Origin: Azolla caroliniana
Taxonomy: Eukaryota > Plantae > Polypodiophyta
DNA: 64,000 nucleotides
Direction of reading: 5' to 3'
NCBI GenBank assembly: GCA_043228905.1
Contig: JBHGNT010000015.1
Coordinates: forward strand, 7,626,001 to 7,690,000
In this document: positions 1-60,980 of the stretch, in pieces
How the letters are laid out: the number at the start of each line of letters is the position of its first letter
How positions within the stretch are numbered: position 1 is the stretch's first letter
The notes under the pieces: generated by a model
What the model was told of the DNA's origin: nothing
Seen by the model: only the letters and a program-made list of their open reading frames with translations
Databases searched by the model: none
Position numbers and translations under genes: made by a program

Positions 1-2000
1 TTTGCAGTTCTTATGCAGTGGTACATAAATAGGTTTGCATCCAAGCATACCATACTTCTTCAACATAGTTGTTCCATACTGTTTTTGCAACATATATATA
101 CCACTTTTAGATCTGATCATCTCAATACCAAGAAAGTATCTCAACTCTCCCAAATCTTTCATATGAAATTACATTTCAAGATTTTTCTTAAGCTTCCTTA
201 TTTCATCCATAGAATCACCTCCAATGATTAAGTCATCAATATATATCAAGATAACAACAATGCAATCATTTATCTTCTTTACATACAGTGATGGATCAAC
301 TTTTGACATTTTGAAAGCAAATTTTTTCAAAGATTCTGAATGTCATGCTCTCGGTGCTTGTTTTAGTCCATAAAGAGCCCTTTTTAGCATACAAACATAT
401 TCTGGATGCTTTTTATCTTCAAAACCTGGTGGTTGACACATATATACTTCTTCTTCGAAGTTACCATGTAAACAAGCATTTTTTACATCCATATGGTGCA
501 GAACCCATCTTTTGGCTGCACTGACAGCAAGTAATGTCCTCAATGTTGCCATCTTTGCAACCGGTGCAAAAGTTTCATCATAATCAATTCCTTGCATTTG
601 GGCATATCACTTTGCCACAAATCTTGCTTTATGTCTACTTACATTCCCATTGGAATCATGCTTTGTTTTGTAGACCCATTTGCAACCTACAACATTTTTT
701 CCTTTTGGTAACTTTACCAAATCCCATGTTCTGTTTTCAACTAATTCATTTATTTCTTCTTGCATTGCTTTCACCCATTTCTTATCAGATTTTGCTTCAT
801 CAAAATTATTTGGATCAGAGATTTGTACCACTTTAGACATGTATGCATAATGCATTGCCATGTATGTATCATAACCAAATCTTTGAACAATCTTTTTCTC
901 TCTATATGATCTTCTCAGTTTTTGATTTGCATCTTTCATTGCCTTTTCCATACCAGGGATTTTCAAGGCTCCTATACCAAGCTCATCATCCAATGATGTA
1001 TTTGAATCTACATCTTCCATGTTTCTAGACCCATCAAGTATTTCATATTCTGGCATCTTCTGTTTTCCCTTCCTATCATCATATTTTTTGTGTCCTGCAT
1101 TTTTCCCACTCCATGCCTTTGAATCAGATTTATTACCAGAGTTTTATGATGGTCCAGTACATTCTATTGATGTTGAACCTTTCTATCCAACATTGCTTCC
1201 ATTTCCACGACAATCTCTTCCATTTTCAGATTTTTCTCTGTCTTCATTTTCACAGTCTTCATCAGTTTCGACATTTTCTTTTGGGTTGTACTAGCTGCCC
1301 AACTCATCAAATATTACATCACGACTTACCACAATCTTTTTTGTCAATAGGTTATAGCATCTATACCCTTTTTGCTCCTCTGAATATCCAACAAGAACAC
1401 ATTTTTCAGCTTTTGGATCAAGCTTACTTCTTACTTCAGCAGGTACATGAACATAGGCAAGGCATCCAAACACTTTTAGATGTCCTAAACTAGGTTTCCT
1501 TCCATAGAAACATTCTTTAGGAGTTACTTCATGTACTCCAGATGTTATACATCTATTTAAAATCAATTTTGTTGTGTTTACAACTTCTGCCCAATATTAC
1601 AATGGCATATTTTTTTTCAGTCATCATGGCTCTTGCTATGTTAATTGTGGAGTATATCTACATGTAAACTGTCTACTTATTCTTTGATTGCATAGAAAAT
1701 CAGAAAACTCATTTGAGAAATATTCTTCTCCTCCATCAGATCTTAAACATTTTATATCCAGCCTACTTTTCTACCATGCATTTGAACTTACGAAAGCAAT
1801 CAAATACTTCACTTTTCTCTTTCATGAAGTAAACCTATGTTTTCCTTGAGCAATCATCAATAAATGTTACATAAAACTTACATACACTAATTGATGCATT
1901 TTTTGTTGGTCCCCATACATTTGTATGTACCAAATCCAACAAATTTTTGCTTACATGTCTTTCATGAGGGAAAGGCAACCTATTTTGCTTTCCATATTGG
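1..2000 (-). mobile_element. Degenerate Ty1/Copia family A, integrase to RT portion (copy 1)
   Basis: Minus-strand ORF pieces QYGKQNRLPF/LDLVHTNVWGP (INT), [65 protein letters not shown] and YIDD near 230-245. Many stops and frameshifts. Closely similar to 23811-24683 and 29967-30560. Confidence 0.95.
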
Positions 2001-8719: not shown

Positions 8720-10500
8720 AATTGTCCTAATCTTAATTCCGAGCTTCGTCTTGTCCTCCGTGGCCCCTTCTCATTCTTGAGCTGCTTGATGAGTTAGGCG
8801 ATTGCCTTTGCCTGTACTTCATACTCCATAAATTGGGTCTGGTAGGTCACTTGCAACCTATCCAAAATCGTCTTTCCTTGTTTCACTTCCTCGTAGTGAT
8901 GCGATTGGAGTTCCAGTCTCCGTTCCTCCATTACCTTCGTCTTCATCTCAACCATCATCTTCCCTTGATCTCTCAGCACCTCTGTTTTTTTCTTCAGCTT
9001 CGTCCGGACCTCCTTAATCTTTTCTTGTTGTCGATCATAATCCGACCCTAGCTTCTTATGTTCCGCTTCGAATTACTTATGGTCCCTGTGTAGCTTCTCA
9101 AAGTCTTCTATTTTTTGCTTCAAGTGCTGGTTGATTTGAGAGCACGCCCGATCTTCTTGGTCCTTTTGTTGCTAGATCTCTTCCTTTAGCCTCTCTATCT
9201 CCGTTTCGACCATCCTCCGGAGCTTGTCTTTTTCCTACAAGAACTTCTCTATTTCCTCCTTTAGTCGGTCATTGTTTGCTTGACTCTTTCGGAGACATTC
9301 CTCAGTCTTTCATTTCTCTTCATTGGTTGCATTCCTCTATTCTCTTTGTCTCTCTCTTAATGCTTCTTGAGCAGATAATTCGTCCCTTAATGTTTGCATT
9401 TCGTGTTCCCCCTTAGCGTCTTTTTCCGGGGTTGTACTGGCCACCTGTTCTACATATGTTTCCGAAGCTTTCTTCTGTAAATTGGTCGGTTCTACCGGCT
9501 CTGTTCTAGAACTTGTGATTTGGCCCATCTTTGACATGAGGACCGCAAACTACTTGGCGCTTGTCGGCTCCTCCAGGCTCTGAATCCGATTTCGAGCCTT
9601 ATCCAATTTTTCAGTTGTGGTCAGCAACTGTTCTACCCGTATCCGCTCCATCCGTTGCTCTTCATCTATCCGATCAGCCACACTGGATACCTGCTTCCCA
9701 CGCCATTCTAACCATTGCCGGAAGATTCCGTGTTATGTAAGTACGACGAACTGTTGTACTGGCTCCAATTCTTGCTCCCCCCTGAGCCATTGTGCAAACG
9801 ACTCCACTTGCTCTGGTGTTCGCTTCGGTTGGTGTTCCTCTTGTTATTGCTGCCCTAGAAGAGCTGGTGGTGTATGCCCTTCTAACTCCGGTTCTAGTTG
9901 AACCATTGTCACCGATTCTAGTCCGTTGGTTGGCTCCGTTTTTGGTCTAGGTTCCACCATCGTTGAGGAGGGAATTGGTGTATTGTCCTATTCCACCATC
10001 GCTGATCCTTCCCCTTGTTGCTCACTATTGCGCTTCCTTTGGCGACGTTGGAGGGTTTCGGTTTGTTCTTGTTCAACCTCCTCTTCTGCGATTTCCAGGT
10101 TTACCCTGTATACCAGTTCCTCCTGGACTCTTTCATGCTGATGTACCTTTATCTTGATCGATTTTGCTGACTTTTTCGGAACTTTCTCCACCCGGCTCCT
10201 ATCTCCGAGTATCGACACTTCTTCTTTCTGCCAAGATGAGTCCCTTGCTATCCATCCGGGGTTGTGTTTTGGTAAGAGTTGCTACCGTTTGGATGGCTTG
10301 TTGGGCGTGATCTCCGGCCGGCCTCACTTTTTCCGCTTGATGGTGCGTGTCGGGGGTAACAATATTGTTACACACTGTGCTAATCCGCCCCATGCTTTCT
10401 TCCCATCCATTACGGATGTGATTCCCGCTCGTAGTGAGTCGGCCACTATCACTGCCCAGTCCACCTTAAGGCCCACAAATGTGGCGATGATGACACCGAC
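8720..10500 (-). pseudogene. Decayed copy of the Gypsy extra (post-pol) coiled-coil ORF
   Basis: Minus frames VGVIIATFVGLKVDWAVIVADSL, LRDELSAQEALRERQRE and LQVTYQTQFMEYEVQAK match 18101-21097. Confidence 0.85.
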
Positions 10501-11237
10501 TGTCAGGATCAGTACTAAGACAGAGAAGGAATTAGTACTAAAAGATGAGGATTAGTACTAAGAGAGGTGTAGAACTCTCGAGAGAAGGAAAGAGTGAGCG
10601 AGAGAGAGAGCTAGAGAGATAGAGAGAGAGAAAGGGTGAGAGAATGATGATAAAAGATATATATTATGTGAAGAGAGTGTACAATAGTAGCTAGGAGGCT
10701 TAAGACTAACGTTGAACCGATTAGGTTCGAAAAAATGCCGTGTGCCTCCTTTTATAGTGTTCTCAGGAGTACTCCTGAAGTTTCTAGAATGTCCGAGAGA
10801 AATCGGGAATATACATCAATTTTCTATAATAAAACATAAATGAAAATAATATTTTATGTATTACAATGTGTGGTCTAATGGTCAAGAGCTCGACCCATGT
10901 AGCATAAGGCCATGGGTTCGAGTCTTGCCATATCATGACACTTATCCCCCTTTTAAAACAACGAGTGTCACAAGTCGTTTTGGATTGAGGACCCGGTTTG
11001 TCTGGATATTGACGATGGAAGTCTTCAAGAAGAGCACGAGCATTTGTCACATTCTCTATCGGTTCCCAAGTACGCTCACTGGGACTATATCCTAGCCAAT
11101 CGACTAGATAGTAGAACTTGTTGCGAACAATCTTGGAATCAAGGATGGCGGCAACCTCGTACTCAGGTCCATCTTCAATTTCAATCAAGGGTGGAGGCTG
11201 TGTAATACGTCATGGGATGGTGCTCTCTTGATAGGAC
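10501..11237 (-). mobile_element. 3' end of a Tcn1-like chromovirus (chromodomain, PPT, 3' LTR)
   Basis: Chromodomain YEVAAILDSK..YYLVDWLGYSPSERTWEP, PPT at 10941-10955, LTR 10501-10940 (TGTCATG...CTGACA). Same family as 24684-29966. Confidence 0.92.
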
Positions 11238-11786
11238 TTGCCATCACTCGGTTTGGGGCCTTTCTTGGCCGGTTCGGACTTCGTTCCCGAAGATCCACCC
11301 TTCATCCTTTCCGGCCCGCCTGAAGAACCCCGTTACGCAGTACGGGTACAATGAGTACATGGCACATCACTATGCGTACATGACCAAAGTAGCGGAAGTG
11401 TGTGTGCCGGAGAGCTACACAGAAGCAACAAAGGACGCAAATTGGTGTGCCGCTATGGAAGAAGAAATGCGGGCACTCGATGCCAACGACACATAGGACC
11501 TCGTTGACCCTCCCCGACACTGTAAACCAATCGGTTGCTAATGGATGTACAAGGTAAAGTACAATGTTGACGGTTCGGTTAACCGGCACAAGGCCCGGTT
11601 AGTGGCACAGGGATATGCTCAGACCCACGGAACCGACTACGGCGAGACCTTCGCTCCGGTAGCGAAGATGATGAAGATTCGTGTGGTACTGGTAGTTGCC
11701 GCGGCAAGGGGGTGGCATCCTCACCAGATGGATGTGAAGAATGTGTTTCTTCAAAGCGACCTTCAAGAAGAGGTCTTAATGATCCA

Positions 11787-12220
11787 TGTTACCGGCCGGC
11801 AAAGGAGTCCAGAGTGGGAAACGGAGAGCTAATTAAGTAGTAGGAATGTGGTTGTAATTAAGCTATGAGTGTGGACGGACGGACCGGAATCGGTATGCCG
11901 TTCCGGATCCGGACCGATCCCGAACAGGTGCGGATGGCACCGTTTTGTAATACAGACCGGAAACCTATTTAAAGGCCCGGATACAATGTAATAGTTAGCG
12001 GTTAATTAATGAAAGCTTAAGCGTTGTTATCTCTCTGGGTTAATTGCCGTTCTGTCTTAATTGTTATATCTTACGCGTGTTATGAAAGACGATCCTAATA
12101 AGTAACTTAATTAAGTCGGATTAAGCGTTGAAGTCTAATCTGGTTGCCGTAACACCCTTTGGTGAAGTGTCTCCCGTAGACACCCTGTGTTAGGCCATTG
12201 TCCGGCCCGAAGAGTTAACA
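11787..12220 (+). repeat. 5' LTR of the Gypsy element
   Basis: TGTTAC...TTAACA, near-identical to 21152-21585. Confidence 0.97.
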
Positions 12221-12227
12221 CAGTTTT

Positions 12228-12238
12228 TGGCGACCACG
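12228..12238 (+). promoter_or_regulatory. Primer binding site, tRNA-Arg type
   Basis: TGGCGACCACG 7 nt after the LTR, complementary to the plant tRNA-Arg(UCG) 3' end as recalled. Same PBS at 47138. Confidence 0.75.
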
Positions 12239-12273
12239 ATTCCTGTTTTTGCAGCGAACGACGGCACGGATGG

Positions 12274-14200
12274 ATGTCTAGATCAACGCACGACCTGGTT
12301 ACAGATCGAACTCGATGCCTTGCCGAAAGGCAAAGGAGACGCGAGGCTTTCCAGCAAGCGGCGCAGGAAATTAGAGCGGATCGCTCGTTTTCCAACGTAA
12401 TCCGGAGAGTAACGGAGGACTCCCTCTGGTTAAAACAAACATCGCACCCGGACGACGGCAACAGCCTAAGCAGCCTCCGGGAAACCGAATCCCTTCTCCA
12501 CATGTTGGCAAACGGAGAAGGCGAAGCAGAGGCCTTTTCAGCATATGAATCGGACTCCGAAGGGGAATACAACGTGCACACGAACTACCGTAGCAGCAAC
12601 GAAACCCCGGGCGGACCGGAGGACGAAGGATCGGATACCTTACCGACACCGGAACCGGACCCGGAAGTGCTAATGCTGGAACCCTCGGAACCAGCAGAGG
12701 AAGAACGACCTCCGACACCGGAAGTCGAAGAGGAGAGGCCTCCGTCACCAAAGGAAGAGAAACAACCGACACTGGAATCAAATCGGGAAAGACCATCGAC
12801 ACCAGAGAAAATTCCGGAACGAGCACCAACACTACCAGCCCGGACGACGACATGCCGTTCCAGTACTCCAAGTATAGAGATGATCCGGACGCGAAAGCTC
12901 ATGTGCACGCCTTTGAACAGACATGGGAAGCCAACCATGTGTCCCAGCGATTGACCCCAGAGGAAGAAGAACGTTCTAAGATAGCGGAATTTGGCGTCAC
13001 ATTGGAGGGACCAGCAGCAAGATGGCGCCGGACGCAGGACCCGATTTAAAAGCTAAATTCATGCATTTTTTTCAAAAGGAGGTGGACCAGACCGTAATGG
13101 TAGGCTTATTTTATACCATCCGGCAAGAGGCAGGGGAGAGCATTCCCCAATTTGCCAGCCGGTTTCAACGGATGCATAGTCAGCTTGCCCGTGCACCCCC
13201 GAAGGAGGAATTACGGACGATATTCCTAAACGCGCTCCGGGAACCCCTACGCACGGTTTGCACGGTAATCGATTTCCGCACAAGTACCATCGACCAGGTC
13301 ATTGACCGGGTGAGAGAGATGGAAAAGACAAGCTCCTGGCTCACACTAGGAGCACTTCAACGGGCGTTACCGTCCGATGAAGACCTCCAGTTTCGGCAAG
13401 CAATACAGTGCACAACCTGCTTGAATTCCAGACACTCGGCTCTAGAATGCACTATGAGGACGCAATGTGTAATCTGTCAATCCAAGAGCCATATGACGGA
13501 TAGGTGCGAGTATAATCTGTTGAATCGGCAAGCACCGCCCGTCCGACAAATTGAGCCACGCAGTAGCAGGGATGAAGAAGACGAACGCTGGCGGCGAATG
13601 GACCGTGACCGACCGGCACAGGAGGTCCGGTATGGCGATCGACGGGAAAATGATGTCCGGTACGGTGATCGGCTAGATAACAATGACCGGCATGATCGGT
13701 ACCAGGATTACAATAGACGATACGAACAGTACGACCGGGAGCACTCCCCCGGGTATCGTCAGCAACGGGAGAAATACGGCAGATATAACGGGAAACCCTG
13801 TCAAGAGTACCGTAATAAGAAGAGCTATAACAAAAAATGGCATTTTAAAAAAGGCAGCTACCCCCGAGATCCGGAACAAGGAGCTCCAAGTAGCCAATCG
13901 GTACAAAACCCCGCGCGTACCGTAGGACCTACCCCGGGTACAATAGACAATGCCGAATCTAGCAATACCCGGAAAGCCTACTACTACTACTGCCGACAGG
14001 AAGGCCATTATAGTAACCAATGCCCGGTGTAGAGCTATGAAAAACGACAGGCGGTAAATATGGTAGTCCCGGAGGTGGCAGACCTGCAGCAGGTGACCTC
14101 AAGGTCGACGGGCATGGCCAAAGAATGGGAGACACAGGAGACCATCCGGAAACAAGCAACGGAATGGGTAAAGAAAGCAAACGAGCAGAATGTCACAGAC
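12274..14200 (+). pseudogene. Gypsy gag (frameshifted) with zinc knuckles
   Basis: YRDDPDAKAHVHAFEQTWEAN, GPAARW, IRQEAGESIPQFASRF, CVICQSKSHMTDRC and a degenerate YYYCRQEGHYSNQC knuckle. Confidence 0.9.
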
Positions 14201-17200
14201 TTACAGCAGCAAAAGGAGAACACCGCAGGGCTTGCCGGCGGTAGTCACTCCGAGAACGTTACCACTAGGAAGACTCCTACAACTCGTGCCAAGATTCACG
14301 GAAGGACTGAAGACGACCATGACGGCAGGAGAACCATCACCGGCACCGGTACTCTTCTCAAATCCGGAGGAGGGACCAACAGTGGTAGATACCAGCAGTC
14401 TGGTAATCACTGCCATTGTAAAAGGGAAAGAACTCCCCGACACAGTTATAGACGGAGGCTCTGGGGTAAATGTAATAAGCCTCCGGACATGTGATGACCT
14501 AGGAATCCACGAGTGGGAGCCGTGTCCGTTCTGGTTGCGGATGGCCGATACAAGCTCAGTGCGGCCGACAGGATTAATACGGAAATTAGAAGTCACCGTC
14601 GGCGGTCATACATTTCACATCTCGGCCGTAGTGCTACAATTACAGGCACAAGGCGCATACCCGCTATTGCTGGGGCGGCCATGGTTGAAAACGGCACATA
14701 TCAAACAGAATTGGCGAAAAAATATAATTACCTTCCGGCGAGGAAAAGCCAAGGTACGGGTATGAACACAGCCAAGGACGAGCACTGGCAAGGAATGTAC
14801 ACCGTTGTATGCGGAATACGTCAACATGCTAGAAGGGTTAGCGGACGAAGAAGAAGCTCAATACCTGCAGGAAAACCCGAAGATCATACCCCTCTTCGAA
14901 ATTGACATTGCCGAAGCCGTAGCACCATACCTACCGCAACCGGAAGAGGCGGAAGCAGAACCGGATAAAGACGCAATCCGGGAGTTACGGCAAGCGCAGG
15001 AAGCGTTGGAACGGGAAATGGCCGTTTCACAACGCGTAAAAGCATCGCAACTGGAAGAGGTGAATTTAGGCACCACGGACGAAGCAAAACCGGTGCACAT
15101 CGCCAAGGAGATGAAGTCCGGAGACAAAACGGCGATGATAACACTTCTCACGGAATTTCGCGATGTATTCGCCTGGTCATACGAAGACATGCGAGGACTC
15201 GACCCTCAGTTATACCAGCATCAAGTGCACTTGAGCAAGGACGCAAAACCAGTGGCACAAAGACGGTACCGGATGAATCCCAATTACGCCGCCAAGGTCA
15301 AGGAAGAAATCGACAAACTGCTAAGAGTTGGCTTTATCCGTCCGGTAAAGAAAGCGACATGGCTGAGCCCGATCGTAGTCGTACCGAAGAAGAACGACAA
15401 AATTCGAGTTTGCGTGGACTACCGGAAACTCAATGCGGCTACGGTAACGGATGCGTTTCCACTTCCGTTCACAGATGGAGTGTTGGATGCCGTCGCCGGC
15501 CATGAGGTCTATAGCTTCCTAGACGGATTCAGCGGGTATAATCAGATCCGGATGCACCCCGACGACCAAGAGAAAACGGCATTCGTCACCGAATGGGGGG
15601 TGTTTGTGGCCGTGGTGATGATGTTCGGACTCAAAATGGCACCGGCAACATTTCAACGAATCATCATGGAAATCTTTGGTGGATATATACCGGCTTTTAT
15701 GCAGGTTTTCCTTGACGATTTCGCCGTCTATAGCCGGGAGGAGGACCATTTTCAGCACCTCCGTCTTTGTCTAGAAAAGTGTAGAGCGTACCGGCTAAGC
15801 TTGAATCCGGCAAAGTGTGTATTTGGCGTGTCCAGTGGAACCTTATTAGGACATATTGTGAGCCAGGAAGGTATTGTGAGCCATATTAGAAGCACCGGCG
15901 CCGGTAACAGCAAAGGCATTAAGCCGGTTCTTAGGCCAGATCCGGTGGCACAGTCGGATGCTCCGATACTTGGCCGACCTGGCTACACCGTTGCATGCCG
16001 CCGTACATCGCACACCATTCCAGTGGGCCGATACTGAGGATAGGGCGTTTAAGGCCCTCAAGGTACTATTGTCGCAGGCACCGGTAGTACAACCTCCGGA
16101 TTGGAGTAAAGAATTTCACGTGTTCGTGGACGCCTCTGACATCGCAATCGGAAGCGTACTGATGCAGCTTACGGAACCAAAGTGGTACCGGCCAGTGTAC
16201 TATGCCAGCCGGAAGCTATCCCAAGCAGAATGGAACTACTCTACTACGGAATGGGAAGCCCTAGGAATGATCTACAATGTGACAAAGTTTCGGCACTATT
16301 TATTGGGAAGGAAGTTTTCCTTCCATGTAGATCATTCGGCACTCCTTTACCTAGTGTCCAAGGTGTCACTCACCGGCAAATTGGCCCGGTGGACCTTATT
16401 GTTACAGGAGTTCGAGTTTGAAATATTCCACCGACCCGGTATACAGCATGCCGTAGCGGATTACTTAAGCCGATTGTAGTCCGGAGAGACGGGGGACGGA
16501 GTACCGGATGAGTTTCCGGATGCGGAGCTGTTTTGAGTCACTACGGAGACGACAACAAATGAGATAGTGGCCCAGGAAGACAAGTGGCTCACAAATATGC
16601 ACCAGTTTCTGAGCACAGGACTGCCTCCGGAAGAGCTGAACCGGGACGAATGCAAACGCCTGGCGGTGCAAAGCCGACATTTCTGCTTACTGCAAGACAC
16701 ACTGTACCACTAGGGCGCGGATGGCATATGGAGACGGGCGGTGCGCAGCGATGAAAAGGAACTGAGACGGAGGGAAGCCCACTGTGGAGTTGCCGGAGGT
16801 CACTATGCCGGAGATGCGATGGCCAGAAAAATATGGCAAAGTGGCCTATGGTGGCCAACGACATTAAGAGATGCGGTACGGTACGCAAAAGAATGTGACC
16901 TATGCCAAAGAATGGGCCAGCCAACGGAGCAGGCTCGTATGCCACACCAGCCGGTACTACCACTCGAGCCATTCCACAAGTGGGGGCTGGACTTTGAGGA
17001 CCGTTCAAGCCACCGACAATGAGAACGGGTAATCGGTACGTTATCGTTGCTACGGATTACTGCACGAAATGGGTGGAGGCCAAAGCTTTACGGGATAACA
17101 CCGCTGCGTCAACGACAAAGTTTCTATATGAGTACATCTGGTGCCGTTACGGATGCCCGATTGAATTGATAAGTGACCAAGGGGGGCACTTTCTCGGACA

Positions 17201-17942
17201 AGTAGTGGAAAGCCTAACGACCTTCTATGCCGTGGTCCACAAACGAAGCACACTTTACTATCCACAGGCGAACGGATTAGCAGAATCAACAAACAAGACG
17301 CTCCAGAATATCCTTCGGAAGATCGTCAATGAGAACTGGACGGATTGGGACACAAAGCTACATAGCACGCTTTGGGCATACCGGACGGCATACAAAACGA
17401 GCATCCAAACAACACCGTTCCGGTTGGCGTTCAGACTCGAGGCGGTCATGCCGGTAGAATTCCAAGTACCTAGCTTACGGATCCAGCTACGAGAACGGCT
17501 GAACGAGAAGGAGTCGGAGACAATAAGGTTGACAGCGCTGTGTGAGCTCGAGGAACAACGGTTGGCTAGCATCCTACATTTAGAATTGGAGCAACGGCAA
17601 CGGAAAGCATTCGTCGACCGGCACAGGAAAGGTAAGGAAAAAATGTTCGCAATCGGCAAACCGGTGTTAGTATTCCAAACCCGGATGGGCAAGATGCCAG
17701 GTAAACTACGGTTTAGATGGACCGGACCATATTGGCTAACACGGGAGTATAATGGGTCCTACCAGTTAGGGACACTTGCCGGCGAAGTGCTAGGCAAATG
17801 GGTCAACGGATTCCGGTTAAAGGCATATAGAGGACCGATGCCTAAGAACCCGTTTGAGCAAAGGACCGACGGCAGAGACGGAAAGCCGGGAACCGGAGAG
17901 AATGAGGCCGGTAAGGGTCCGAGAGGACCAACGGACAAGTGA
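14190..17942 (+). pseudogene. Gypsy pol: protease, RT, RNase H, integrase (several stops and frameshifts)
   Basis: VIDGGSG; WLSPIVVVPKK, FLDGFSGYNQI, FLDD; FVDASD..HVDH; H-H-C-C zinc finger, WGLDF, ISDQG, PQANGLAE, WTGPY. Confidence 0.97.
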
Positions 17943-18100
17943 CGTTACACTAATAATAATAATAACTGAAAAAAAGAAAGAAAAAAAAAACAATCATGCA
18001 AAAGCGAGGAATGAATGGAGGAAAGAGTGAGGAGCGAAAAGGTACGTAGTGGGCATTTAAAGCGCCACCACAGGACATAATGCTATTTTAAGTACGCGAC

Positions 18101-21097
18101 ATGCACACACTCGAAAAAGGCGCCAGAATGCACAGACAAAAACCACTGCACGTAGAGACCCTCTACTTTCGCGAACCCAGGAGCACAGAAGCACCAAGAC
18201 GCTGCAAGATCATCAGACGAGAACCTGCGCACAGAGAACCCCTGCCTTCTGAACTCTCTCTTTCTCAACCCCACTCTCATCACCATCCATCCTCGCCACC
18301 GCAATCCGACCCCGACACAGAAATGGACCCGCAAACGCTGTCGGAAGCCGCCAAGACATGGCTGAAGCAACACGGGCTCGAGGGCTTCTTGATGATGATG
18401 GAAGTACCGCCACACAAAGAAGCCGACAAAGTGATCAAGGAAATCGATACAGAGGTCATAACGGCAGAGGCGATTCGAGCGTTAACAGGCCTTCCGGAGG
18501 GAGGCATACTCACGATCGACAATCCAACCCCGGAGCAACTCATCAGGTATTTTGGTGAGTACTCTCTAGCCATCAAGGGCTACCGGACACAGGGCGGCGG
18601 AGATATGCTGTTCCGCGAAATTGCTCGTGTGCTCCATGAATACGGCCACGTGTACCCTAGACCTCCTGTCATGCTGCAAAACCGGGCAGGGATGATCATC
18701 ACCACCTATGAAGGGATCAAGGTGGATTGGCCGGTATTGATCGCAGACGGGTTGTGTGCGGCGATCGAGATCGTCAGAGGCAAAGACGGGAAAGAAGGCC
18801 GAGGCGGACGAAGGATATGGCATGCCGTAACGCAGTGGCTCACCTTGCTGGTGCCACCCGTTCAGACCGTCCAGCCCAAGAAGTGAGGAAGAGTGGCGAA
18901 CGGCACCCCAAGGACGGCTTCCAAACGACAACAGTTGTTGGCCTCTAAGGCCAGTAAGGGAAAGGCGGCGGATGCAGAACAGGCGGCAGCAGGAAGCAGC
19001 AGCCGGAAGCGCCCAACGGAGGCGCAGGAGGAACCACCGGCACGGCCCGTAATGGTCACACTCCGCCGACCGGTGAATCGAGAAGTGGACCCCTTGGCGG
19101 CAAAACTCAATGCCAGAGCTCAGGAGGAGGAAATAGAGGAGGAACCTACGGAGCACCTCCAGCGACGGTCGTCGGTAAGGACCGTTGAGACAGCCGGGAA
19201 ACGTTCGAACCCTCAGACGGAGGGAACACCGGCTCCCCATACTGAGACTCCCACGCCAAGGAAGGAACCGGAACCGGTGCAGATGGCACCAGAAACAGAA
19301 GCCCCGGCACCACCGGCAACACCGGCAAGTCCCATCCCGCCAGAGCCGGAAAGGTCACTGCAGCCTCCCTCGGTCAGCCAAGAAGAAGCGCAAGGGGAAC
19401 CAGGACAGCAGGATGGTCCACGGGCAGAAACGGAACTGCAACTCGGCGCAACCAGGCGGGACTACCCCTCTACAAGTGAGCCCATCTGTGAAACCTCCGT
19501 GCAAGCACAACAAGGCACCGGTAGCCTGTGGCTCCGGTGGATAGGCGAACAGATAGCCGGAGCAGTGGGGTATATTGAGGCGGAAGAAAGAGCGCACAGC
19601 GAACGGTTGCTCGTCACAACCGAACAACTAGAGACGGCCCGGTCCAGAATCCGGTGCCTTGAGAAAGACTTGGATCAGGTCACGACAGAGATGGCCAAAA
19701 TACGGATCCAATCACCAGTGACTCCGGTAAGTGTACAGAATAAAGAAACGGAACGACCTGTACATAGCAATAAGACCCCAGCAACGGAAACCGTTTCGGC
19801 GAGAGATGCGGCGCAAGCTCAGGAGCTTGCGGAATTGAGAGAGGAACTTGCCACACAAGAAGCGCTAAGGAGCCGTGAACGAGAATTGAAGACGGCGGCC
19901 GAAGCCGAATTAAAGAAGACTGCTGAGAACCTCCGTCGGGCAGAGGAGAGCCTCCAGAAAGGCCATCAAGCGTACGACCAGCTAAAGGAGGAGAAAGACA
20001 AAGTGCTGCAGGAAAAGGACAAGCTGCGGAAAACGGCGGAAACAGAGATGGAACGGCTAAAGGAAGAGCTCCACCAGCAGAAGGACCGCGAGGACCGGGC
20101 CCGTCGTCAGATCAACGCATGGCTCAACCAAAAGACGGATGATTTTGAGCACCTACACCGGGACTACAAACGGCTGGAAACGGAGCATAAAGAACGGATG
20201 GTCGAGCTCCAGCAGGCAGTTGATCGGGCCGCGATGGCGATCGCCGACGAACGGGCGGAAAATACAAGACGCTTGGATGAGGCGGAGAAGGTCCGGATGG
20301 AACTCCAGAGGCAACAACAGGAAGACAAAGAGAGAGCGTCAACAGTATTGCAGAAATTACAAAGCGCATATCAAAGGCAATTGACGCATTACAAGGCACA
20401 GGCGGAGGACAACATCAAAATCATCAAACAACTGAAGGAGGAACGACAAGCGGCGGAAACCAAATCACAATTGGGAACGAGCCGGATTCAGTCCATCCTA
20501 CGGGCATGGCTGAATCAGACAAAACACTTGATTGATGAAAGCTCCGTAAAATGGTGGACAAAGTGGGCACAAAACGCGGCGGAACTCCAATTGCAACAGG
20601 CGGATGTGGCAAACCAGCGGAAGGAAGGAGATGACTGTTATACGTTGACTTCCGAGGACTTCACCGCCATACGGGACGAGTTGGCCGACGACTTCCAAGT
20701 CCTGGCAGATGAACAGCTGGCGCAGGTCAAGCAGCTCGTAGCTCAGCTGGATGATGATAGGCTGGACGCTCAAATCTAGTTTGAAAGCTACGAGCGGTCC
20801 CGGGTGCGGGAAGAAAAAGCATGGGAAGCGGCAATGGTTAACCTTAGTGATGAGGAACCGTCGCCGGCTGAGGGCCAGCCGGGAACCAGTCAACCGGAGA
20901 CCACTACGATGCAGGGAGCAAGGACGGAGATGCCGGTGTCAGAGCCACAATCGGAGGAGCAGCCGCAGCAACCACCAACGGACCCGCCGCAGCAGACTGC
21001 AACAAAGCAGCAACAACAACAACAACAACAACCACTTCCAGATGAACCATTGGAGCCTCTCGAACAAAGCATTCTGGACATTTTGGACGAAGAATAG
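18101..21097 (+). pseudogene. Extra retrotransposon ORF: N-terminal plant-mobile-domain-like segment, disordered linker, long coiled coil, polyQ tail
   Basis: ORFs 18101-18886, 18893-20779 and 20804-21097 are in one frame, broken only by a TGA (18884) and a TAG (20777). Likely start is the ATG at 18323. Confidence 0.85.
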
Positions 21098-21151
21098 CAA
21101 GGGTTGGTTGTGGATTCGACGTACAAGGTACTGTCCCACGGGCGTGCCATG

Positions 21152-21585
21152 TGTTACCGGCCGACAAAGGAGTCCAGAGTGGGAAACGGAGAGCTAATTA
21201 AGTAGTAGGAATGTGGTTGTAATTAAGCTATGAGTGTGGACGGACGGACCGGAATCGGTATGCCGTTCCGGATTCGAACCGATCCCAAACAGGTGCGGAT
21301 GGCACCGTTTTGTAATACAGACCGGAAACCTATTTAAAGGCCCGGATACAATGTAATAGTTAGCGGTTAATTAATGAAAGCTTAAGCGTTGTTATCTCTC
21401 TGGGTTAATTGTCGTTCTGTCTTAATTGTTATATCTTACGCGTGTTATGAAAGACGATCCTAATAAGTAACTTAATTAAGTCGGATTAAGCGTTGAAGTC
21501 TAATCCGGTTGCCGTAACACCCTTTGGTGAAGTGTCTCCCGTAGACACCCTGTGTTAGGCCATTGTCCGGCCCGAAGAGTTAACA
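21152..21585 (+). repeat. 3' LTR of the Gypsy element
   Basis: Matches 11787-12220 and is followed by the ATCCA TSD. Confidence 0.97.
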
Positions 21586-23810
21586 ATCCAACCCCCGGGA
21601 TTTCAGTCGGAGATAAACAAGTCGGCGGTATGCCGGCGTAAGAAGTCGCTTTACGGTCTGAAAAAAGCCCCTCGAGCATGGAATGCGAAGACCACGCACC
21701 AGTTGCGTAAGATGGGGTTTGTGACCTCTAAATCTGACTCCTCGTTGTTCATCCGGCAAGGTCCGGACGGTTCGGTTTGCATCCTACTTTATGTTGATGA
21801 TTTAGTCATCACCGGACCTAGACTCAATGAAATCGGCCGAGTAAAGTACCAACTGTTGGACGCATTTGAAATGAAGGACCTGGGGGACCTTCATTAGTTT
21901 CTTGGGATCGAGGTGATCCAAAACCCCTATGGCATATTGGTCCCACAACGACACTATTTGTTGAACATGTTGTACAAGTTCGGCGTGCCGGAATGCCGAC
22001 CTATCTCCACACCCTTCGACTGGAACTTGAAGCTCCGTCCCAACTCTAGACTGGCCTGCAATAAGAAACGGTTCCGACAATTTTTTGGAAGCCTCATATA
22101 CCTGACAAACACTCTACCCGACATCAGTTACCCAGTCGGAGTGATCAGCTAGTTCATGCAGAAGCCGACCGTCTAGCACCTTCAGTGCGCACATCGGATA
22201 CTCTGGTATGTGAGTGGCCCGAAGGATCGGGGATTGTTATACCGGCATGGTATAATCGAAGAGCTAGTTGGATATACAGATGCCGACTGGGCCGGAGATG
22301 CATCAGATCGCCGATCCACCTCCGGTTACATGTTTTCTCAACGTAGCACGGTTGTTGCGTGGAGCGGCAAAAAGCAACCAACAGTGGCTCTGTCAAGCAT
22401 TGAGGCTAAGTACTGGGGAGCTACCAATGCCACCTGTGAAGCCATCTAGCTTCGGTGACTACTACGTGACCTCCGGATCGAGGTACCAACCCCGATCCTG
22501 ATCTATTCTGACAACATGAGCAACATTCAGCTCGCCAAGAACCTTGTATTCCATGCTCGGACAAAGCACATAGAAGTGCATTATCACTTTGTTTGCGAGT
22601 GGGTCCTGAGCGGTGAAGTTGAACTTCGGTATGTTCACACGGATCGGCAGGTTGCCGACATCTTCATCAAGCCGCTAGGATCGGACAAGTTGCAACATTT
22701 TTCGGAGATGCTCGGTATTCAGCATCTCGATGTGCCGAAGTTGAGGGGGAGAAAAGGAAAGGGAATGGATGGCACTAGACAAGGAACCAGGAAGGGAAGA
22801 ACCAACAAAGAGGGAGACGAGAGGAAAAAGGAAGCCGAGTCGACAAAAGAAGTCGGCACATCCGAACAAGTCGGATCGAGCGGAAACGGCGGTAGAGTCA
22901 AGAAGGATAGAGCCGACCGGAAGGAGAAGGCCAGGACCCGGACATGGTCTGATACGGTGAAGGGCCTGAAACTGGAAGACGAGTTGGAGAACACTGACTT
23001 GGACAAGAGCTAGAACAAATCGAAGGAAACCGATTTGGTTCAAGATTCGGAGAAACCGGATCAACTAAAGGCCAAACTGACACGGACATGGACACAGCGG
23101 AAGTCGACGCCAACACGAAGGAACCGATGGGTCGACAAGCGCTGGAGTCGTAGCAGCAAGGGAGCTAAAATGGGCCTGTTGAGTAGACAAGCCGACTGAG
23201 GAGGTCAAGGTGCACAGAACTAGAAGGGTCGTGGCAAACAAGATCAAACCGGACGTGGAGTGTGAGCAAGGTGGAGCAACGACAAAAGGAGCCGCGATAT
23301 TGAACCGGCTGCCACAGACACTAAAACCACGATCTGACCTCAAGTTGAGCTTGAGGGGGAGTATTGAGCGAGCAAGCTCAACCGGATCCGGATCTGCTGA
23401 AGAAGCCTGAGCTGGATCAACATCCGGAAGGATGAGCCGGATCGGTATCCGGATGGTATCTAGAAACAACCGGCCGGATAGGGGAGACGGATCGGAGAGC
23501 CGGATTCAAGCGGGAACCAGAAGCCTAGTAGTAGCCTAGACTACTAGGTAATCCTTGTCTCGTAGTTAGTGTTAGTCGAACGTAGGAATATTGAAGTACC
23601 TGTCAGTCCTTTATGGACTTGTATAAATAATGTTGTTTAGCACGTTGTATGTACAGAGTTTTCAAATTGATATTTTGAATTGCGTTTATGTTCTGCTCTC
23701 TCTCTCTCTCTCTCCCGCGTGTACTCTTTGTGTATTAAGCTTCTCCATTAAACCTTCATCTTATTCTCTGTTGCTTTTGCAGGTTTACATTCACAGTTAC
23801 CATGTTATCA

Positions 23811-38243: not shown

Positions 38244-39250
38244 TGTTACAGGCATGACCATATAAAATCCCGTGGTAAGAATTTAGCGTAGTATTCTATA
38301 CACGTGGATAAGTGTGAGGGTTAAATGAGAGTGTAAAGAAGGGGAGGATTACTTTTAATCCTCGGGATTGAGACAACCCATTAGGCCAAGTGTGAACTTG
38401 CATGGGGGCCTAGGTACCCTCATTTCATCATCTCTTGACTACGTCGAGACTCTGTTCTTGTGGTGGGTCAACTCTTGTAATGAGCGTGCTAGCACCAAGT
38501 ACGACTCGATGCCATGGTGGTGGTATGGGACGCCGATCGAGGCTCAAGTCCGTCTCAGTTCCTTCGCTCGGGGGTAGTCGGGTGGATCGGCACCCTTTTT
38601 TCTCTCTCTCCTTTCTTATTTCATATATCTTTAATCCTTAACATATGCTTACGTTACACCATCGCTCTAACAATTGGTATCAGCGCTTATGTTTCTAATG
38701 TTTCTTTTGTTACCCCATTTTTCGTTAGAGGGTATACCGTTAGATTTAGGGTTCGTTATTCTTCTTCTTCTTCTTCTCCCCCTTCGTGTTCACTTAGGGT
38801 TGACTTCAGCTCGTCTCCTGCGCAAGACCCCGCTTGGCGCGACAACCCCGTGAGCTCCCGACCTGCGGCTTGGCAGCCAACGACTACTGTAACCTACCTT
38901 GGTCTGGCTCGAAGCCGGGAGTGTATTCCTCCTTTTATATATATACATTTGCGTCTGTCTGTGTATATTGGTGTCTCTGTTGGTGTCGGGTACTTCCCCT
39001 TTTCCTACGTTTCCTGTACATAAGGGCGTGAGTCGGGTCGGCCTGTGTGTGCGTGTGTGTGTGTGTGTGCGTGAGTCGGCGTCAAGTGCACGCTCCCTCT
39101 CTTTCTCCCTCTCCCTTCGGTTGCTTCCGTTGTGCTTCTAGGATGCCCCGGAAATGGTGAAGCACGACTTCCTACGCTCCGTCACTCCCTAGTCCAAGAC
39201 CCCCGTGGTCCCGCCTTTCTCCATGCACGTGCGTAACAACGCGACATCTT

Positions 39251-39268
39251 TGGTGAACCCGACGTGAA
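39251..39268 (+). promoter_or_regulatory. Primer binding site complementary to tRNA-Trp
   Basis: TGGTGAACCCGACGTGAA is the reverse complement of the plant tRNA-Trp 3' end (TTCACGTCGGGTTCA-CCA) as recalled. Confidence 0.85.
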
Positions 39269-39283
39269 AGACGGCAAGGGAGG

Positions 39284-40615
39284 ATGGAGTCGGAAGACGA
39301 CGACCTCGCGGAGATGGTGGCCGAAGTGGTGTTGGAGTCGGCACGAGTGGTGATGAGGCGAGAAGCAGCGCAACAAGCAGTTGAGCAAGTGGTCGAAAGA
39401 GTCGGCCGTTTCAACGGGGACAAAGTCCCATCTTACTTGGAAGCCTACAATGCGGAAATGGAGGAGCGCGGTGTAGACAAGGCGTTGAGGCTGGAGTTCT
39501 TCTGTCAGGTCGTAGTTGTCCGGATGCATGCAGAAGTAAAGGAGCTCCATGAGGCTCATAGTTCGTGGGAGGCCTTCGAAGAGGCGCTCCTGAAGGCATT
39601 CGGGGGACGGCGGAAGAGCCGGGGACAACACGACCTCGACCAGTGGGTAGCATCGGCAAAGACCCACCGGGGCGCGACCAAGGCGTTCCGAGAGTTCGAG
39701 CGACGGCTTGCTCGGCTCCCGAAGCGGGAACAAGGTTTGGTGGGGGCGGACAAGGTCCTATTGTTCGTCAGGTCGATCGACCGAGCGGAACGGGAGGTCA
39801 TCGGGATTGAGCTCGAAGAAGATGACGGGGCGAATGGGCTTACGGAGGACTGGTCGAAGGTCGGAAGGGTGTGCCAACGGCTAGACGACGGCGTGCCATC
39901 ACAACGGGAAGAGGCCGAACGGCAAAGGGAGTTGGCAAGGGTTGGCGTTGAGGCCCGGATTGCGGAGGCGTACGCGGCTCTCGAGGCGATGCTCGAGGAA
40001 GAGGAAAGACCGAGGCTGCAAGCCGAGACTGAGGAGACGGATTTGCCCCACGCGACGACAGAAGATGGGTACGTCGGTACCACAGGAGAGGGTGCGGAAC
40101 AAAACGCCCTCTCGACTTGCGGAGACAGAACGGCCAAGGACGAGGCCGAGATACAGATCGCGGAACCGGATAGTTGGGACCAGCGGTTTCGGCAGTGTCA
40201 GCCCGAAACCCCGGAAATCGGGGAAGCAAGCCCAAGCGGGGCTTGCGTGATCGGTAAGGAGACGACCGCCGACCACGAAGAGTCGGTGGCTACGGACAAG
40301 GGCGTAAAACGGATGGGCGAATCTTTGCGTCTTCTCACACTTGCTCCCGAGACGACGACAGTCGGGCTCGAGTGCCCACATAAGTCCCAAGAGGGGGAAG
40401 GCGGCCACAAGAGACCAAGAATCACCGGCGAGACGATACGGGGAAGGAGCGGACGAAAGCCCACGGACCCGATTCCAGAGAACTCGGCATTCGGGCCCGT
40501 ATGCCCATGTAAGACCGAGGAGTTGGATGGTAGTACCGAGGAGTCCTGGCATGATGCCAACGAAGATGGATGGGAGATGGCCGGCGAAAGGGTCGACGAG
40601 GAGACCAAGGAATGA
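39284..40615 (+). CDS. Gag-like capsid protein (443 aa, open frame)
   Basis: Starts just after the PBS. VGRFNGDKVPSYLEAY, SWEAFEEALLKAF, FREFERR..KVLLFVRSI resemble a Ty3/Gypsy capsid; acidic disordered C-terminus. Confidence 0.7.
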   Translation: MESEDDDLAEMVAEVVLESARVVMRREAAQQAVEQVVERVGRFNGDKVPSYLEAYNAEMEERGVDKALRLEFFCQVVVVRMHAEVKELHEAHSSWEAFEEALLKAFGGRRKSRGQHDLDQWVASAKTHRGATKAFREFERRLARLPKREQGLVGADKVLLFVRSIDRAEREVIGIELEEDDGANGLTEDWSKVGRVCQRLDDGVPSQREEAERQRELARVGVEARIAEAYAALEAMLEEEERPRLQAETEETDLPHATTEDGYVGTTGEGAEQNALSTCGDRTAKDEAEIQIAEPDSWDQRFRQCQPETPEIGEASPSGACVIGKETTADHEESVATDKGVKRMGESLRLLTLAPETTTVGLECPHKSQEGEGGHKRPRITGETIRGRSGRKPTDPIPENSAFGPVCPCKTEELDGSTEESWHDANEDGWEMAGERVDEETKE

Positions 40616-40949
40616 CCCGACCGGGGACCGAACCACGCGACGCTCCGATACGGGTGGAGCGTGATCCGGTCGTGGATTGTTCGATCGGGGCCGGATTCGG
40701 CATAAAGGTGCCGATACGGGAGAGGGTGCGGGACGAGCCGCCCTCTTTTACATGGGGAGAAAGACCAACCAGGCAAAGGTCGAGAGTTGGAAGGAGGGTG
40801 ATCAAAGGTTCGGAAAGAGTCTGGCAAGATCGGCATCGGAGCCGAAACTCTGGACATTGGAAAATCAAGCTCAGGCGGGCTTGCTTGATCACAGAGTGGA
40901 TGCTATCCACCGACACCACTAAAAGGGGCGGTGGCCCGGACAAGTCGCC

Positions 40950-42750
40950 GAAAGACGTTGTAAAATCGGTTACCCCACGTCCTATCCGGAGACTTCGGCA
41001 GTTTGGCCGACGTGGCAACATAAGACCGAGGGAGAGAGATGGAAGATGGAGGCGGGATTGCAGCAAGGAGAGCGACGACAAGTTCGGGAGAAGTACAGGA
41101 GAATGGAAGTCGGTCCTATGGAGTTCCTTACACCGATCCAGTTGTCGGCTCGAGTGCCGGCGTGAGTCCTATAGGAGAGGTTGGTGGCGACAGGAGATCA
41201 GGACCCTGCAATCCGGAGAAGGACGAACGGACCCGAACGAGAACCGGGTGGAACGGACTTCTGGAAAACCGTTCCGGGAGGAAGGGAGAGAGCAGGCCTA
41301 CAAAGAGGCCAGGAACACGGCACGTCAGTACCACAGGAGAGGGTGTGGAGCGAGCCACCCTCTCGACTTACGAAAGAAGGAATACCCGGGATAAGGGTCA
41401 GAGATATGGCAAGCCCGAGGAGGATCCTTCACACCGGTTCTACAGAAACCGGCGGTCGGCCTAAAGTGACGAATGGTGGCGGCGAGGGGACGAAGGCAAA
41501 GGGCTACGGATAGGCGGTCTATGGAGATCCTCACACCGATCCGGCGGTCGGTCCGAGAGCCGGCGTGAGTCCTATAGGAAAGGACGGTGGCGGCAGGTGA
41601 ACGTGACCAACAGGAGAGGATGGCGGAGGTAGAGCGGTGCAGCTGTGACCTTACACACACCGATTCTAGAGACTCCAGCAGCCAACGACAAGAGGAGGCG
41701 TGAGACCTAGAGTAAGGAACGGTGGCGGCGGCGGGCAACCGAAGCCAGAAGGGGAAGTCCCACGAAGATACTCACATTGATCCGGCGGTCGGCCCGAGAG
41801 CTGGCGTGAGTCCTATAGGGGAGATCGGTGGTGGCAAGACAACGTGATCGGACGATAGGAGGTGGAAGACGGCAAGGAGGTATGAGGCCGGCAAGGCGGC
41901 TACAGACCATGTCAAACCTTCCGGCGAGTTGAGTGGGCGTAAGGAAGTCCGGACCTATGGGATCCCCACACCTAACCAGAGACTCCGGCAGTTTGGCCAA
42001 CATGGCAACATGAGACCGAGAGAGAAGGTTGGTGGCGGCGGGAAACGGGACCCGACTACGCGGAAGACAGGAGGAGAGTCCGGGAGGGACTCAAACAAAA
42101 GACACCTGGATTTCGGCAAGCGACGAAACGAAGACTGGTCCTATGGGATCTTCACACCGGTTTCAGATACTTCGGTTGTTCGGCCAACGTGGCAACATAA
42201 GACCGAGGGAGAAGGAAGGTGGCGGCAAGGGATGGGACCTGGCATCGACAAAGGAGCTGGTAAGACGGGCGGACGAAGTGCAAAACCCTCACCGGCCGGT
42301 TACGGTTTCGGAAGGAGCCAGTAGGGGCAAACACGGGGAGGTGTGTCAGGCCGGAAAGGCACACCTGGGACGGAACAAGAGTCTCACAAGTGGCCATCGC
42401 GGGCTGGATCGAAGCGTGACTACGGGACGGTGTTCGGCACGGGCGGAGCCAAACAAAGGAAGCGGAAGATGGCACAAGGGAGGTGCCGGGAACGAGGTGA
42501 CAAGTGCATAGTGGACTACACAGGGTCGGAGTCAAGGGATGACAAGGGAGTCCGGAGGAGGATCCTCCACACTCGCTTCGTCGATCTCGGCAGTCAGAGT
42601 AGCGAAGATTGACACGGCAAGCCCGGGATGACAAGCTGGTGGGGCGAGGGGATGACGGCAAGCGGAAGACTCGGGACCTGTTGCAGCAGCCCAAAACGGG
42701 AAAGGCGAAGCGGGCCACTATGGGTATTCCTCAAGCGGAGGACATCGGGC
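40950..42750 (+). repeat. Array of degenerate GC-rich hairpin repeats
   Basis: CCTATGG..CTCACACCG-like motifs near 41115, 41420, 41518, 41760, 41953, 42140 and 42558. GGCGTGAGTCCTATAGG x3. TGGCAACAT(A/G)AGACCGAG x3. Confidence 0.8.
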
Positions 42751-43561
42751 ATACGGCGGAGAGCGGGGCGTTCATACGGCCGAACAAGGGCCAGCGGAAG
42801 TACGCATACTATGGAGATCGCGGTGAAGGACCCATCGACAGGTCGAACAAGCCTACGGGGAGGTAAGCGCGAAGGAAGAACTGAAGCCGACGGATCAAAC
42901 CGGCAGCGAGCCGAGATGCGGATTACGGAAGACCGGTTTCTCACCGGCTGAAATCTCTCACCCTTCACCGGATTTGGCACGTACCGGTGGACGTGCGGTT
43001 TGGTGGGGGCGGATGTCGTGAAGAATTTCGGCCAGAGGCGGAAACCGGGAAACATTGGCTACATCGGTGGGGTGCAGCATGTGTGCTCACCCTTGTACAT
43101 TTAGTGTGAATAACGAGGGCGCCTTTATGGGACAGACGATCCCATGTAAGTCGGGATTTATCCCACATTGTAACACATCCCTCTCCTTGTTCTATAAAAG
43201 GAAGCGAGCGCCCTTTGTGAAAGGGTTGCCCATTTTTCGTTAGAGGGTATACCGTTAGATTTAGGGTTAGTTATTCTTCTTCTTCTTCTTCTTCTCCCCC
43301 TTCGGGTTCGCTTAAGGTTGGCTTCAGCTCGTCTCCTGCGCAAGACCCCGCTCGGCGCGACAACCCCGTGAGCTCCCGACTTGCGGCTTCGCAGCCGACG
43401 ACTACTGTAACCTACCCTGCTCCGGCTCGAAGTCGGGAGTGTATTCCTCCTTTTATATATATACATTTGCGTCTGTTTGTGTATATTGGTGTCTCTGTTG
43501 GTGTCGGGTACTTCCCCTTTTCCTGCGTTTCCTATACATAAGGGCGTGAGTCGGGTCGGCC

Positions 43562-43593
<32 letters not shown>

Positions 43594-49600: not shown

Positions 49601-50604
49601 GGTTAAAAGAGGAAAAAGACAAATTGTTGCAAGAGAAAGACAAGTTATGCCGGATGGCAGAAGGACAGATTGAACGACTGAAAGAAGAGCTCCGACAACA
49701 GAAAGACAGAGAAGACCAAGCAAGAGGTCAAATTAACCGGAGGTTAAATCAAAAGACCGAGGACTTTGAAAGACTACATCGGGATCACAAGCACTTGGAA
49801 GCAGAGGACAAGGAAGTTGATGGCGGAATGTGACGGGCAACAAGAGAAGATAAGAGAACTCCGGAATGAAGTAACCAAGAAAACGGAGGCGCTGATTGAA
49901 GAACGAACGAAGGCGGTTGAGTCTGCAAAGCTAGTAGAGGAAGCGGGAAGAGAAAGGACGGTGCTCACCGGACAGCACTATGACGAGATGGAACGAGCAA
50001 AATTGGCTTTGGATAGTGTTCAAACAACGTATCAAACCCAATTGCTGGAATATGGGGTGCAAGCACAGGCAACCGCAGGCCTGATAAAGCAGTTAAAAGA
50101 GGAAAAGCAGGATGCGGAGGACAAATCCAAGATGGGACTCAGCCGGATCCGCACCATTGTGCTAGCATGGAAAGAAAGGACAAACAGTATGATTAAGGAA
50201 AGCTCAGTGCAAGGGTGGTCGAAATGGGCACAACAGGCGGCGGAGTTACAAACTCTGCGAGCGGATGCTGAGAATCGGTGAAAGGACGGTGACAACTTCT
50301 ACAAGATGGATGCGAAGAGCATTGTAACCATCCAGGAGGATTTGTCAGACAATTTCTTGTCCCTAGCAGGAGAACAATTGGCAGCGGTGAGCCGGCTGGT
50401 AGAACAGTTGGCATAGACGGTACGAGCGGGATCGTAGACGGCAGGTGGCATCACAAATGACAGCGGCAATCAACATAAGTGATAGAGAGCAATCTCCAGA
50501 GCAGCCACTGAATGTTGCTGGAACCGGAGGAGGCCAGCCAGACGAAGCCCGAGTGGAGCAGTCGGAAGTAGTCAGACCAGAAGAGCCAGCAGAAGCAGAA
50601 TGGG
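46686..50604 (+). mobile_element. Internally deleted relative of the 11787-21585 Gypsy element
   Basis: LTR 46686-47131, PBS TGGCGACCACG at 47138, decayed gag, short INT zinc-finger piece 49130-49450, coiled-coil ORF remnant 49450-50600. No 3' LTR. Confidence 0.9.
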
Positions 50605-60951: not shown

Positions 60952-60980
60952 GTTTGTGTGTGTGAGAGAGAGAGAGAGAG
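60922..60980. repeat. Compound microsatellite (AT)n(GT)n(GA)n directly before the start codon
   Basis: Read directly from the sequence. Confidence 0.95.

Follow-up and report, generated by a model that had tools for sequence, protein, structure and literature searches.

Organization of the element

Analyses of a 64,000-nucleotide stretch of the Azolla caroliniana genome (the window) identified a Ty3/Gypsy LTR retrotransposon, with an LTR pair, a target site duplication (TSD), a PBS (primer binding site) and domains in the order gag-PR-RT-RH-INT, followed by a large extra ORF in the sense orientation (Table 1). The flanking sequence indicated that the element had inserted within an older Copia RT region. 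A contig in run X1 joins the flanks 11783/21589 without the element, and represents either the unoccupied site or a further copy of the Copia around it. The integrase stop of the window copy is at 17940-42. Neither a chromodomain nor an extra RNase H was seen in the window gag-pol (Pfam) or in the domain list of a relative, P0278, and PF13456 (additional RNase H) was not matched in P0278 or the window pieces. Another relative, L101, has an unbroken 1853-codon gag-pol frame, identical LTRs and an 877-codon extra frame.

Table 1. Features of the retrotransposon and its extra ORF (window coordinates).
Feature	Position	Strand	Remarks
Left TSD	11782..11786	+	5 bp; identical 5 bases at 21586-21590
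5' LTR	11787..12220	+	434 nt; 6/434 bases differ from 3' LTR
gag-PR-RT-RH-INT	12166..17942	+	Broken in window copy; Pfam domains recognisable
PBS	12228..12240	+	13 nt complementary to host tRNA-Arg(TCG) 3' end plus CCA
A-rich tract after pol stop	17969..17990	+	Also in sister subfamilies and family B
Conserved non-coding-type block	18036..18105	+	Candidate internal promoter; TATA-like box at 18054
Extra sense ORF	18128..21097	+	989 codons from most conserved ATG; two stops in window copy
Globular head	18323..18883	+	Predicted VANC21 (DUF1985/PMD-type) fold; conserved Lys/Arg at model positions 85, 119, 121, 157
First in-frame stop (lesion)	18884..18886	+	TGA
Basic patch, then Pro/Glu-rich variable linker	18887..19516	+	Patch putatively NLS-like
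Short conserved helix and long predicted coiled coil	19517..20479	+	dN/dS 0.13 for 19811-20479
Conserved C-terminal helical domain	20480..20815	+	No known family; contains second stop (TAG, 20777-20779)
Acidic/polyQ tail	20816..21097	+	Ends in short conserved hydrophobic-acidic motif
Sense copy of tRNA-Arg(TCT) 3' end plus CCA	21133..21149	+	2 nt before 3' LTR, at polypurine-tract position
3' LTR	21152..21585	+	Six AATTAA/TTAATT sites

The element has no polypurine tract. The copy of the host tRNA-Arg(TCT) 3' end found in its place matches at 17/18 bases, and is present in 35/40 window-family copies as well as in families B-E. Priming of the second strand by a tRNA is possible. The PBS has switched between families, corresponding to tRNA-Arg(TCG) in the window family versus tRNA-Arg(TCT) in families B and C, with the 3' tRNA copy unchanged. 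Locus L121 (~1450-1520, minus strand) contains, in DNA form, ~50 bases of tRNA-Arg with its CCA, immediately upstream of a family-B head; this fits the primer tRNA having been copied into a deleted element.

Several other features were observed. Five loci (L013, L035, L043, L049 and L050) have internal deletions that removed most of pol and kept the extra ORF and LTR sequence at both ends; these copies were selected by head similarity, so no frequency can be derived from them. In L066, short units are strongly repeated (CTAGAA x11) 430 nt past the tRNA-end motif, at the expected LTR position. Elsewhere in the window, a GC-rich element at 38756-43766 has ~500-nt direct repeats 4.5 kb apart, with a weak gag match and no pol match in the ORFs tested, and an open frame at 60966-61868 matching the ion-transport family PF00520 is probably a host gene exon.

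The extra ORF and its protein

The initial annotation described one reading frame, split by TGA and TAG, whose restored form stops 54 nt short of the 3' LTR. This description was borne out: the frame at 18092-21097 (+) comprises 1002 codons with only two internal stops before a terminal TAG (21095-97), and 54 nt separate it from the LTR. The ATG at 18128 is conserved in 38/41 family copies, and an ATG occurs in similar context in most sister subfamilies; the ATG at 18101, present in 35/41 family copies, is a possible alternative start. The position of the second break is a sense codon in 59/61 other aligned copies, and the natural relatives P0004, P0009 and P0013 are unbroken (972, 990 and 994 aa, respectively), which together indicated that both stops are lesions of the window copy. 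Open stretches of at least 950 codons were found in 4/40 window-family copies. The extra frames of other loci reach 980-1135 codons, the open-frame lengths for families B-E being from loci picked for long frames and so not representing frequencies.

With mismatches permitted and without a shuffled control, the three motifs of the block behind pol were identified in 74, 73 and 66 of 81 loci, and TATA-like boxes lie ahead of the ORF in 7/7 of the family B and C loci examined. Judged from these motifs, the block would fit an internal promoter.

All of the protein regions proposed in the initial annotation (the head peptides, Pro/Glu linker, coiled coil and polyQ tail) were found. The coiled coil, the extent of which was estimated by our own heptad heuristic, covers ~370 residues, compared to the ~350 aa claimed. 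The C-terminal domain has 33-36% identity between distant families and had no usable match in the Atlas. A simple hydropathy scan detected no TM segment, with a maximum 19-residue Kyte-Doolittle mean of 1.29 for the window protein and 0.87-1.31 in 8/8 proteins, in agreement with the earlier view that this is not a classic env.

Copies, families and selection

Searches with the extra-ORF head identified at least 150 genomic matches with 93-100% identity (best 150 of 4522 candidates scored). Eighty loci together with the window formed eight subfamilies. More distant queries identified families B, C, D and E, which have the order gag-RT-RH-INT, sense ORF, LTR, and some of which include young and unbroken elements (e.g., L101). 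Relative to the window, these families have head identities of 32-45% and RT identities of ~80-91%. Two further decayed relatives of the extra ORF lie in the window itself, at 8767-10518 (-) and 49468-50410 (+), with pieces of 34-69% identity.

Comparison with the sister subfamily L141-143 gave dN/dS values of 0.097 for the head, 0.126 for the coiled coil and 0.084 for the C-terminal domain, with 0.35-0.50 for the linkers and tail, 0.056 for gag and 0.023 for RT. A separate within-family head dN/dS of 0.15 was not relied on because the copies had been selected by head similarity, which biases this value; most between-subfamily dS values of that separate analysis are saturated. Loci covered over less than half their length, or falling under the per-segment identity thresholds (paralogous neighbours), were removed ahead of counting. 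In the window subfamily, shared variants were more synonymous than private ones in the head, coiled coil, C-terminal domain, tail, RT and INT, a shift that was absent in the linker, mid and N-extension segments. Head and RT distances were correlated (62 loci), and both trees split the window group from families B and C. These data showed that, in at least five families, the extra ORF has been passed on together with gag-pol and maintained by purifying selection. The accessory gene put forward in the initial annotation is therefore real, element-specific and selected, with dN/dS clearly not near 1.

The ORF does have the position expected of an env-like gene (sense, between pol and the 3' LTR). 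It is nonetheless very improbable that it encodes an env-like membrane protein or derives from neutral capture of a host gene, as the hydrophobic segment is absent in 8/8 proteins and purifying selection in the element lineages is strong. In addition, each of the 112 loci examined was interpreted as an element copy or a fragment of one, and no host gene was recognised among these listed matches, below which a single-copy host homolog could lie.

A profile search identified 269 proteins at E<=0.001. For two of these, P0124 and P0146, identity to the best scored matches in the A. caroliniana genome was only 27-38%, which suggests that other hosts also carry the domain. No relatives of the locus were found by related-locus scans of metagenome or viral contigs.

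Predicted fold of the head

An initial model built on 23 close sequences was of poor quality (pLDDT 44). The predicted head fold matched VANC21 (PDB 9lnk), with 166/187 residues aligned at 9% identity, and VANC21 was the top structural match, 4 Z units ahead of rank 2. Foldseek searches of the head against PDB and BFVD gave 0 matches at E<=0.001, the VIA re-examination of Foldseek's 182 chains gave no match, and neither did a PDB sequence search with the head profile. It is improbable that the VANC21 match is a chance helical likeness and the head a new, unrelated fold targeting a host protein (e.g., an RNA-silencing or chromatin factor), given the gap to rank 2 and the extent of the alignment. 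Moreover, the sole match is an accessory protein of a plant transposon, and it belongs to the family group to which both the initial annotation and the Atlas had already pointed.

At the sequence level, HMMs for PF10536 (PMD), PF03078 and PF20167 had no match to the window protein or to 23 and 30 relatives, and PF10536 was not among the 25 families listed of 40 for 140 members. Searches of the host genome with PF20167, PF10536 and PF03078 also returned nothing, a result that implies no absence since the controls were equally silent. Athila elements were sought in viral contigs for profile comparison and none were found. The language-model Atlas leads for the head were Transposase_32/ATHILA (0.83-0.87), not PMD. 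By sequence membership, then, the extra ORF was not classed as a PMD, Athila ORF or env protein (no PF10536 or PF03078/PF20167 match, no TM segment). VANC21 is reported in two papers to be structurally homologous to the PMD proteins MAIN/MAIL1. The "PMD-like" label given to the head is thus supported only indirectly, through the predicted resemblance to VANC21, and not by PF10536. We conclude that the head is predicted to have a VANC/PMD fold, and that the extra-ORF protein may work like VANC.

Comparison with known systems

The following comparisons draw on the cited papers; PMC10508981, PMC12844716 and bioRxiv 2024.09.27.615353 were also used. VANC21/DUF1985 proteins are anti-silencing proteins of VANDAL (MuDR) transposons (PDB 9lnk; PMC5735166). 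The extra ORF resembles them in its predicted head fold, its role as accessory gene of a plant transposon, its coiled-coil part, its combination of a conserved domain with variable low-complexity regions, and its family-level divergence. It differs in being carried by an LTR retrotransposon, in its low identity (9%), in its frame without introns, and in that no tandem target arrays or demethylation footprint were found. Assignment as VANC by carrier was rejected, as the ORF is encoded by Gypsy elements and not by a VANDAL/MuDR DNA transposon. Descriptions of VANC restrict it to dicots, with a proposed derivation from captured MAIN-like genes (PMC13547354), whereas the host here is likely seed-free.

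In non-chromovirus Gypsy elements, a globular head with a coiled coil behind it is also a feature of PMD-A, PMD+coiled-coil and Tr28+coiled-coil ORFs of Tat, Ogre and Retand (PMC4408406; PMC5418596; PMC11963269), which share the tRNA-Arg PBS and 5-bp TSD. Their ORFs are 3' antisense or 5' sense and accompanied by an extra RNase H, whereas ours is 3' sense with no extra RNase H, and it has no PF10536 or PF04195 match. Such ORFs are known in Tat lineages IV-VI, in other orientations and with the extra RNase H, and PMC4408406 reports that extra ORFs of any kind were not found in Tat lineages I-II or moss Tat-like elements.

The Athila 3' sense extra ORF (PF03078 ATHILA, PF20167 Transposase_32) is similar in position and orientation, and its predicted coiled-coil oligomer and NLS have been reported (PMC11728184; PMC6317226). 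Athila likewise has no extra RNase H or chromodomain, and represents the nearest named Atlas clusters for the head. Unlike Athila, the element has a tRNA-Arg PBS rather than Asp/Asn/Ala, short 434-nt LTRs, no HMM match and no polypurine tract. Phygy/Selgy are similarly non-chromovirus Gypsy elements of seed-free plants without an extra RNase H, although PMC6317226 gives them no extra ORFs, a 4-bp TSD and a tRNA-Trp or -Ala PBS, in contrast to the ~1000-codon extra ORF, 5-bp TSD and tRNA-Arg here. Gene23 of maize Grande is likewise an accessory gene located behind pol, where it has a promoter of its own and yields a nuclear product (reviewed in PMC7264820), properties that are putative for our ORF, being deduced from sequence; gene23 is antisense and ours is sense. 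The closest named RT-RH relatives, ranked by identity with a relative's Pol as query, were from the liverwort Riccia (49-54%), the fern Adiantum (47-49%), Marchantia (45-48%) and Vitis (45-47%), a further point of difference from Athila.

A possible anti-silencing role

VANC21 is reported to remove methylation and to bind a motif of 9 bases, tandem arrays of which have been amplified in non-coding regions. We observed an excess of AATTAA in the window LTR and of CGGATC in family D. There were no repeated 6-mers in families B and C, no tandem arrays were evident in families A-D, and no extra conservation of AATTAA sites was seen. CG and CHG transitions were ~5-8x A/T transitions, evenly along the element including the LTRs, and this indirect mutation-footprint test showed no protected LTR. 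The uniform CG/CHG decay indicates that copies were methylated after insertion, and that any protection is transient, local or absent.

Based on these observations, we propose that intact relatives make a nuclear coiled-coil protein with a VANC21-like head, which binds motifs of its own element to counter host silencing. Transcription of the extra ORF would start at an internal promoter of its own, located behind pol, and would not involve splicing. The conserved basic residues of the head are predicted to form the DNA-binding face, the basic patches would carry the protein to the nucleus, and the coiled coil and C-terminal domain may oligomerise it, so that several heads could engage dispersed short motifs. 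Binding would leave the LTR or internal promoter open to transcription, at least for a time, both in cis and, for family members, in trans. We consider the case for this mechanism to be evenly balanced because the footprint is uniform and the LTR motifs are patchy.

A protein with the same DNA-binding fold could instead tether the pre-integration complex to chromatin, or import it to the nucleus, replacing the chromodomain missing from this lineage. This would account for the missing demethylation footprint and patchy LTR motifs, and is consistent with an integrase without a chromodomain, with the NLS-like basic patches, and with the nuclear-import role proposed for such ORFs (PMC7264820). We nevertheless regard tethering as rather unlikely, as the head divergence among families (32-45% identity) would be equally or better explained by targets specific to each family than by one host target common to all. 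A role in the virus-like particle, as a structural protein or RNA chaperone that perhaps aids the unusual tRNA-type second-strand priming, seems less likely still, and the particle-scaffold idea of the initial annotation gained no direct support. The long coiled coil would suit such a role, the divergence rate of the extra ORF equals that of gag, and families A-E have both the gene and a tRNA copy at the polypurine-tract position. However, co-occurrence within one lineage reflects shared ancestry, the head resembles a dsDNA-binding nuclear protein, no capsid or viral fold was listed for it in the structure searches, and the separate promoter block argues against co-translation with Gag.

Implications

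The function of plant LTR-retrotransposon extra ORFs is described as an open question (PMC7264820), and whether PMD originated in a Gypsy element or a host has been called "fully open" (PMC5418596). The present analyses indicated that strong selection maintains a large extra gene in a high-copy retrotransposon group, and the predicted fold of the front part of its protein suggests that the gene would likely aid the element in resisting shutdown. We found no prior report in the accessible literature of a VANC-fold or PMD ORF in Gypsy elements of ferns or other seed-free plants. The natural head variants, with 32 to 97% identity and each with its own LTR, would make prediction of motif from head testable in vitro.

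More tentatively, we speculate that this is retrotransposon-encoded, sequence-specific anti-silencing of the VANC type in a seed-free plant, with each family's head co-evolving with its own LTR motif. The VANC, PMD and Athila/Transposase_32 "env-like" domains would then belong to a single, ancient superfamily of DNA-binding domains that Gypsy elements already carried prior to seed plants, and host MAIN/MAIL genes and VANC would derive from a retrotransposon accessory gene. A VANC-fold gene maintained by selection in at least five Gypsy families of a plant that is likely seed-free, and for which Pfam PMD searches were negative but uncontrolled, would mean that the fold is older and favor its origin in transposons.
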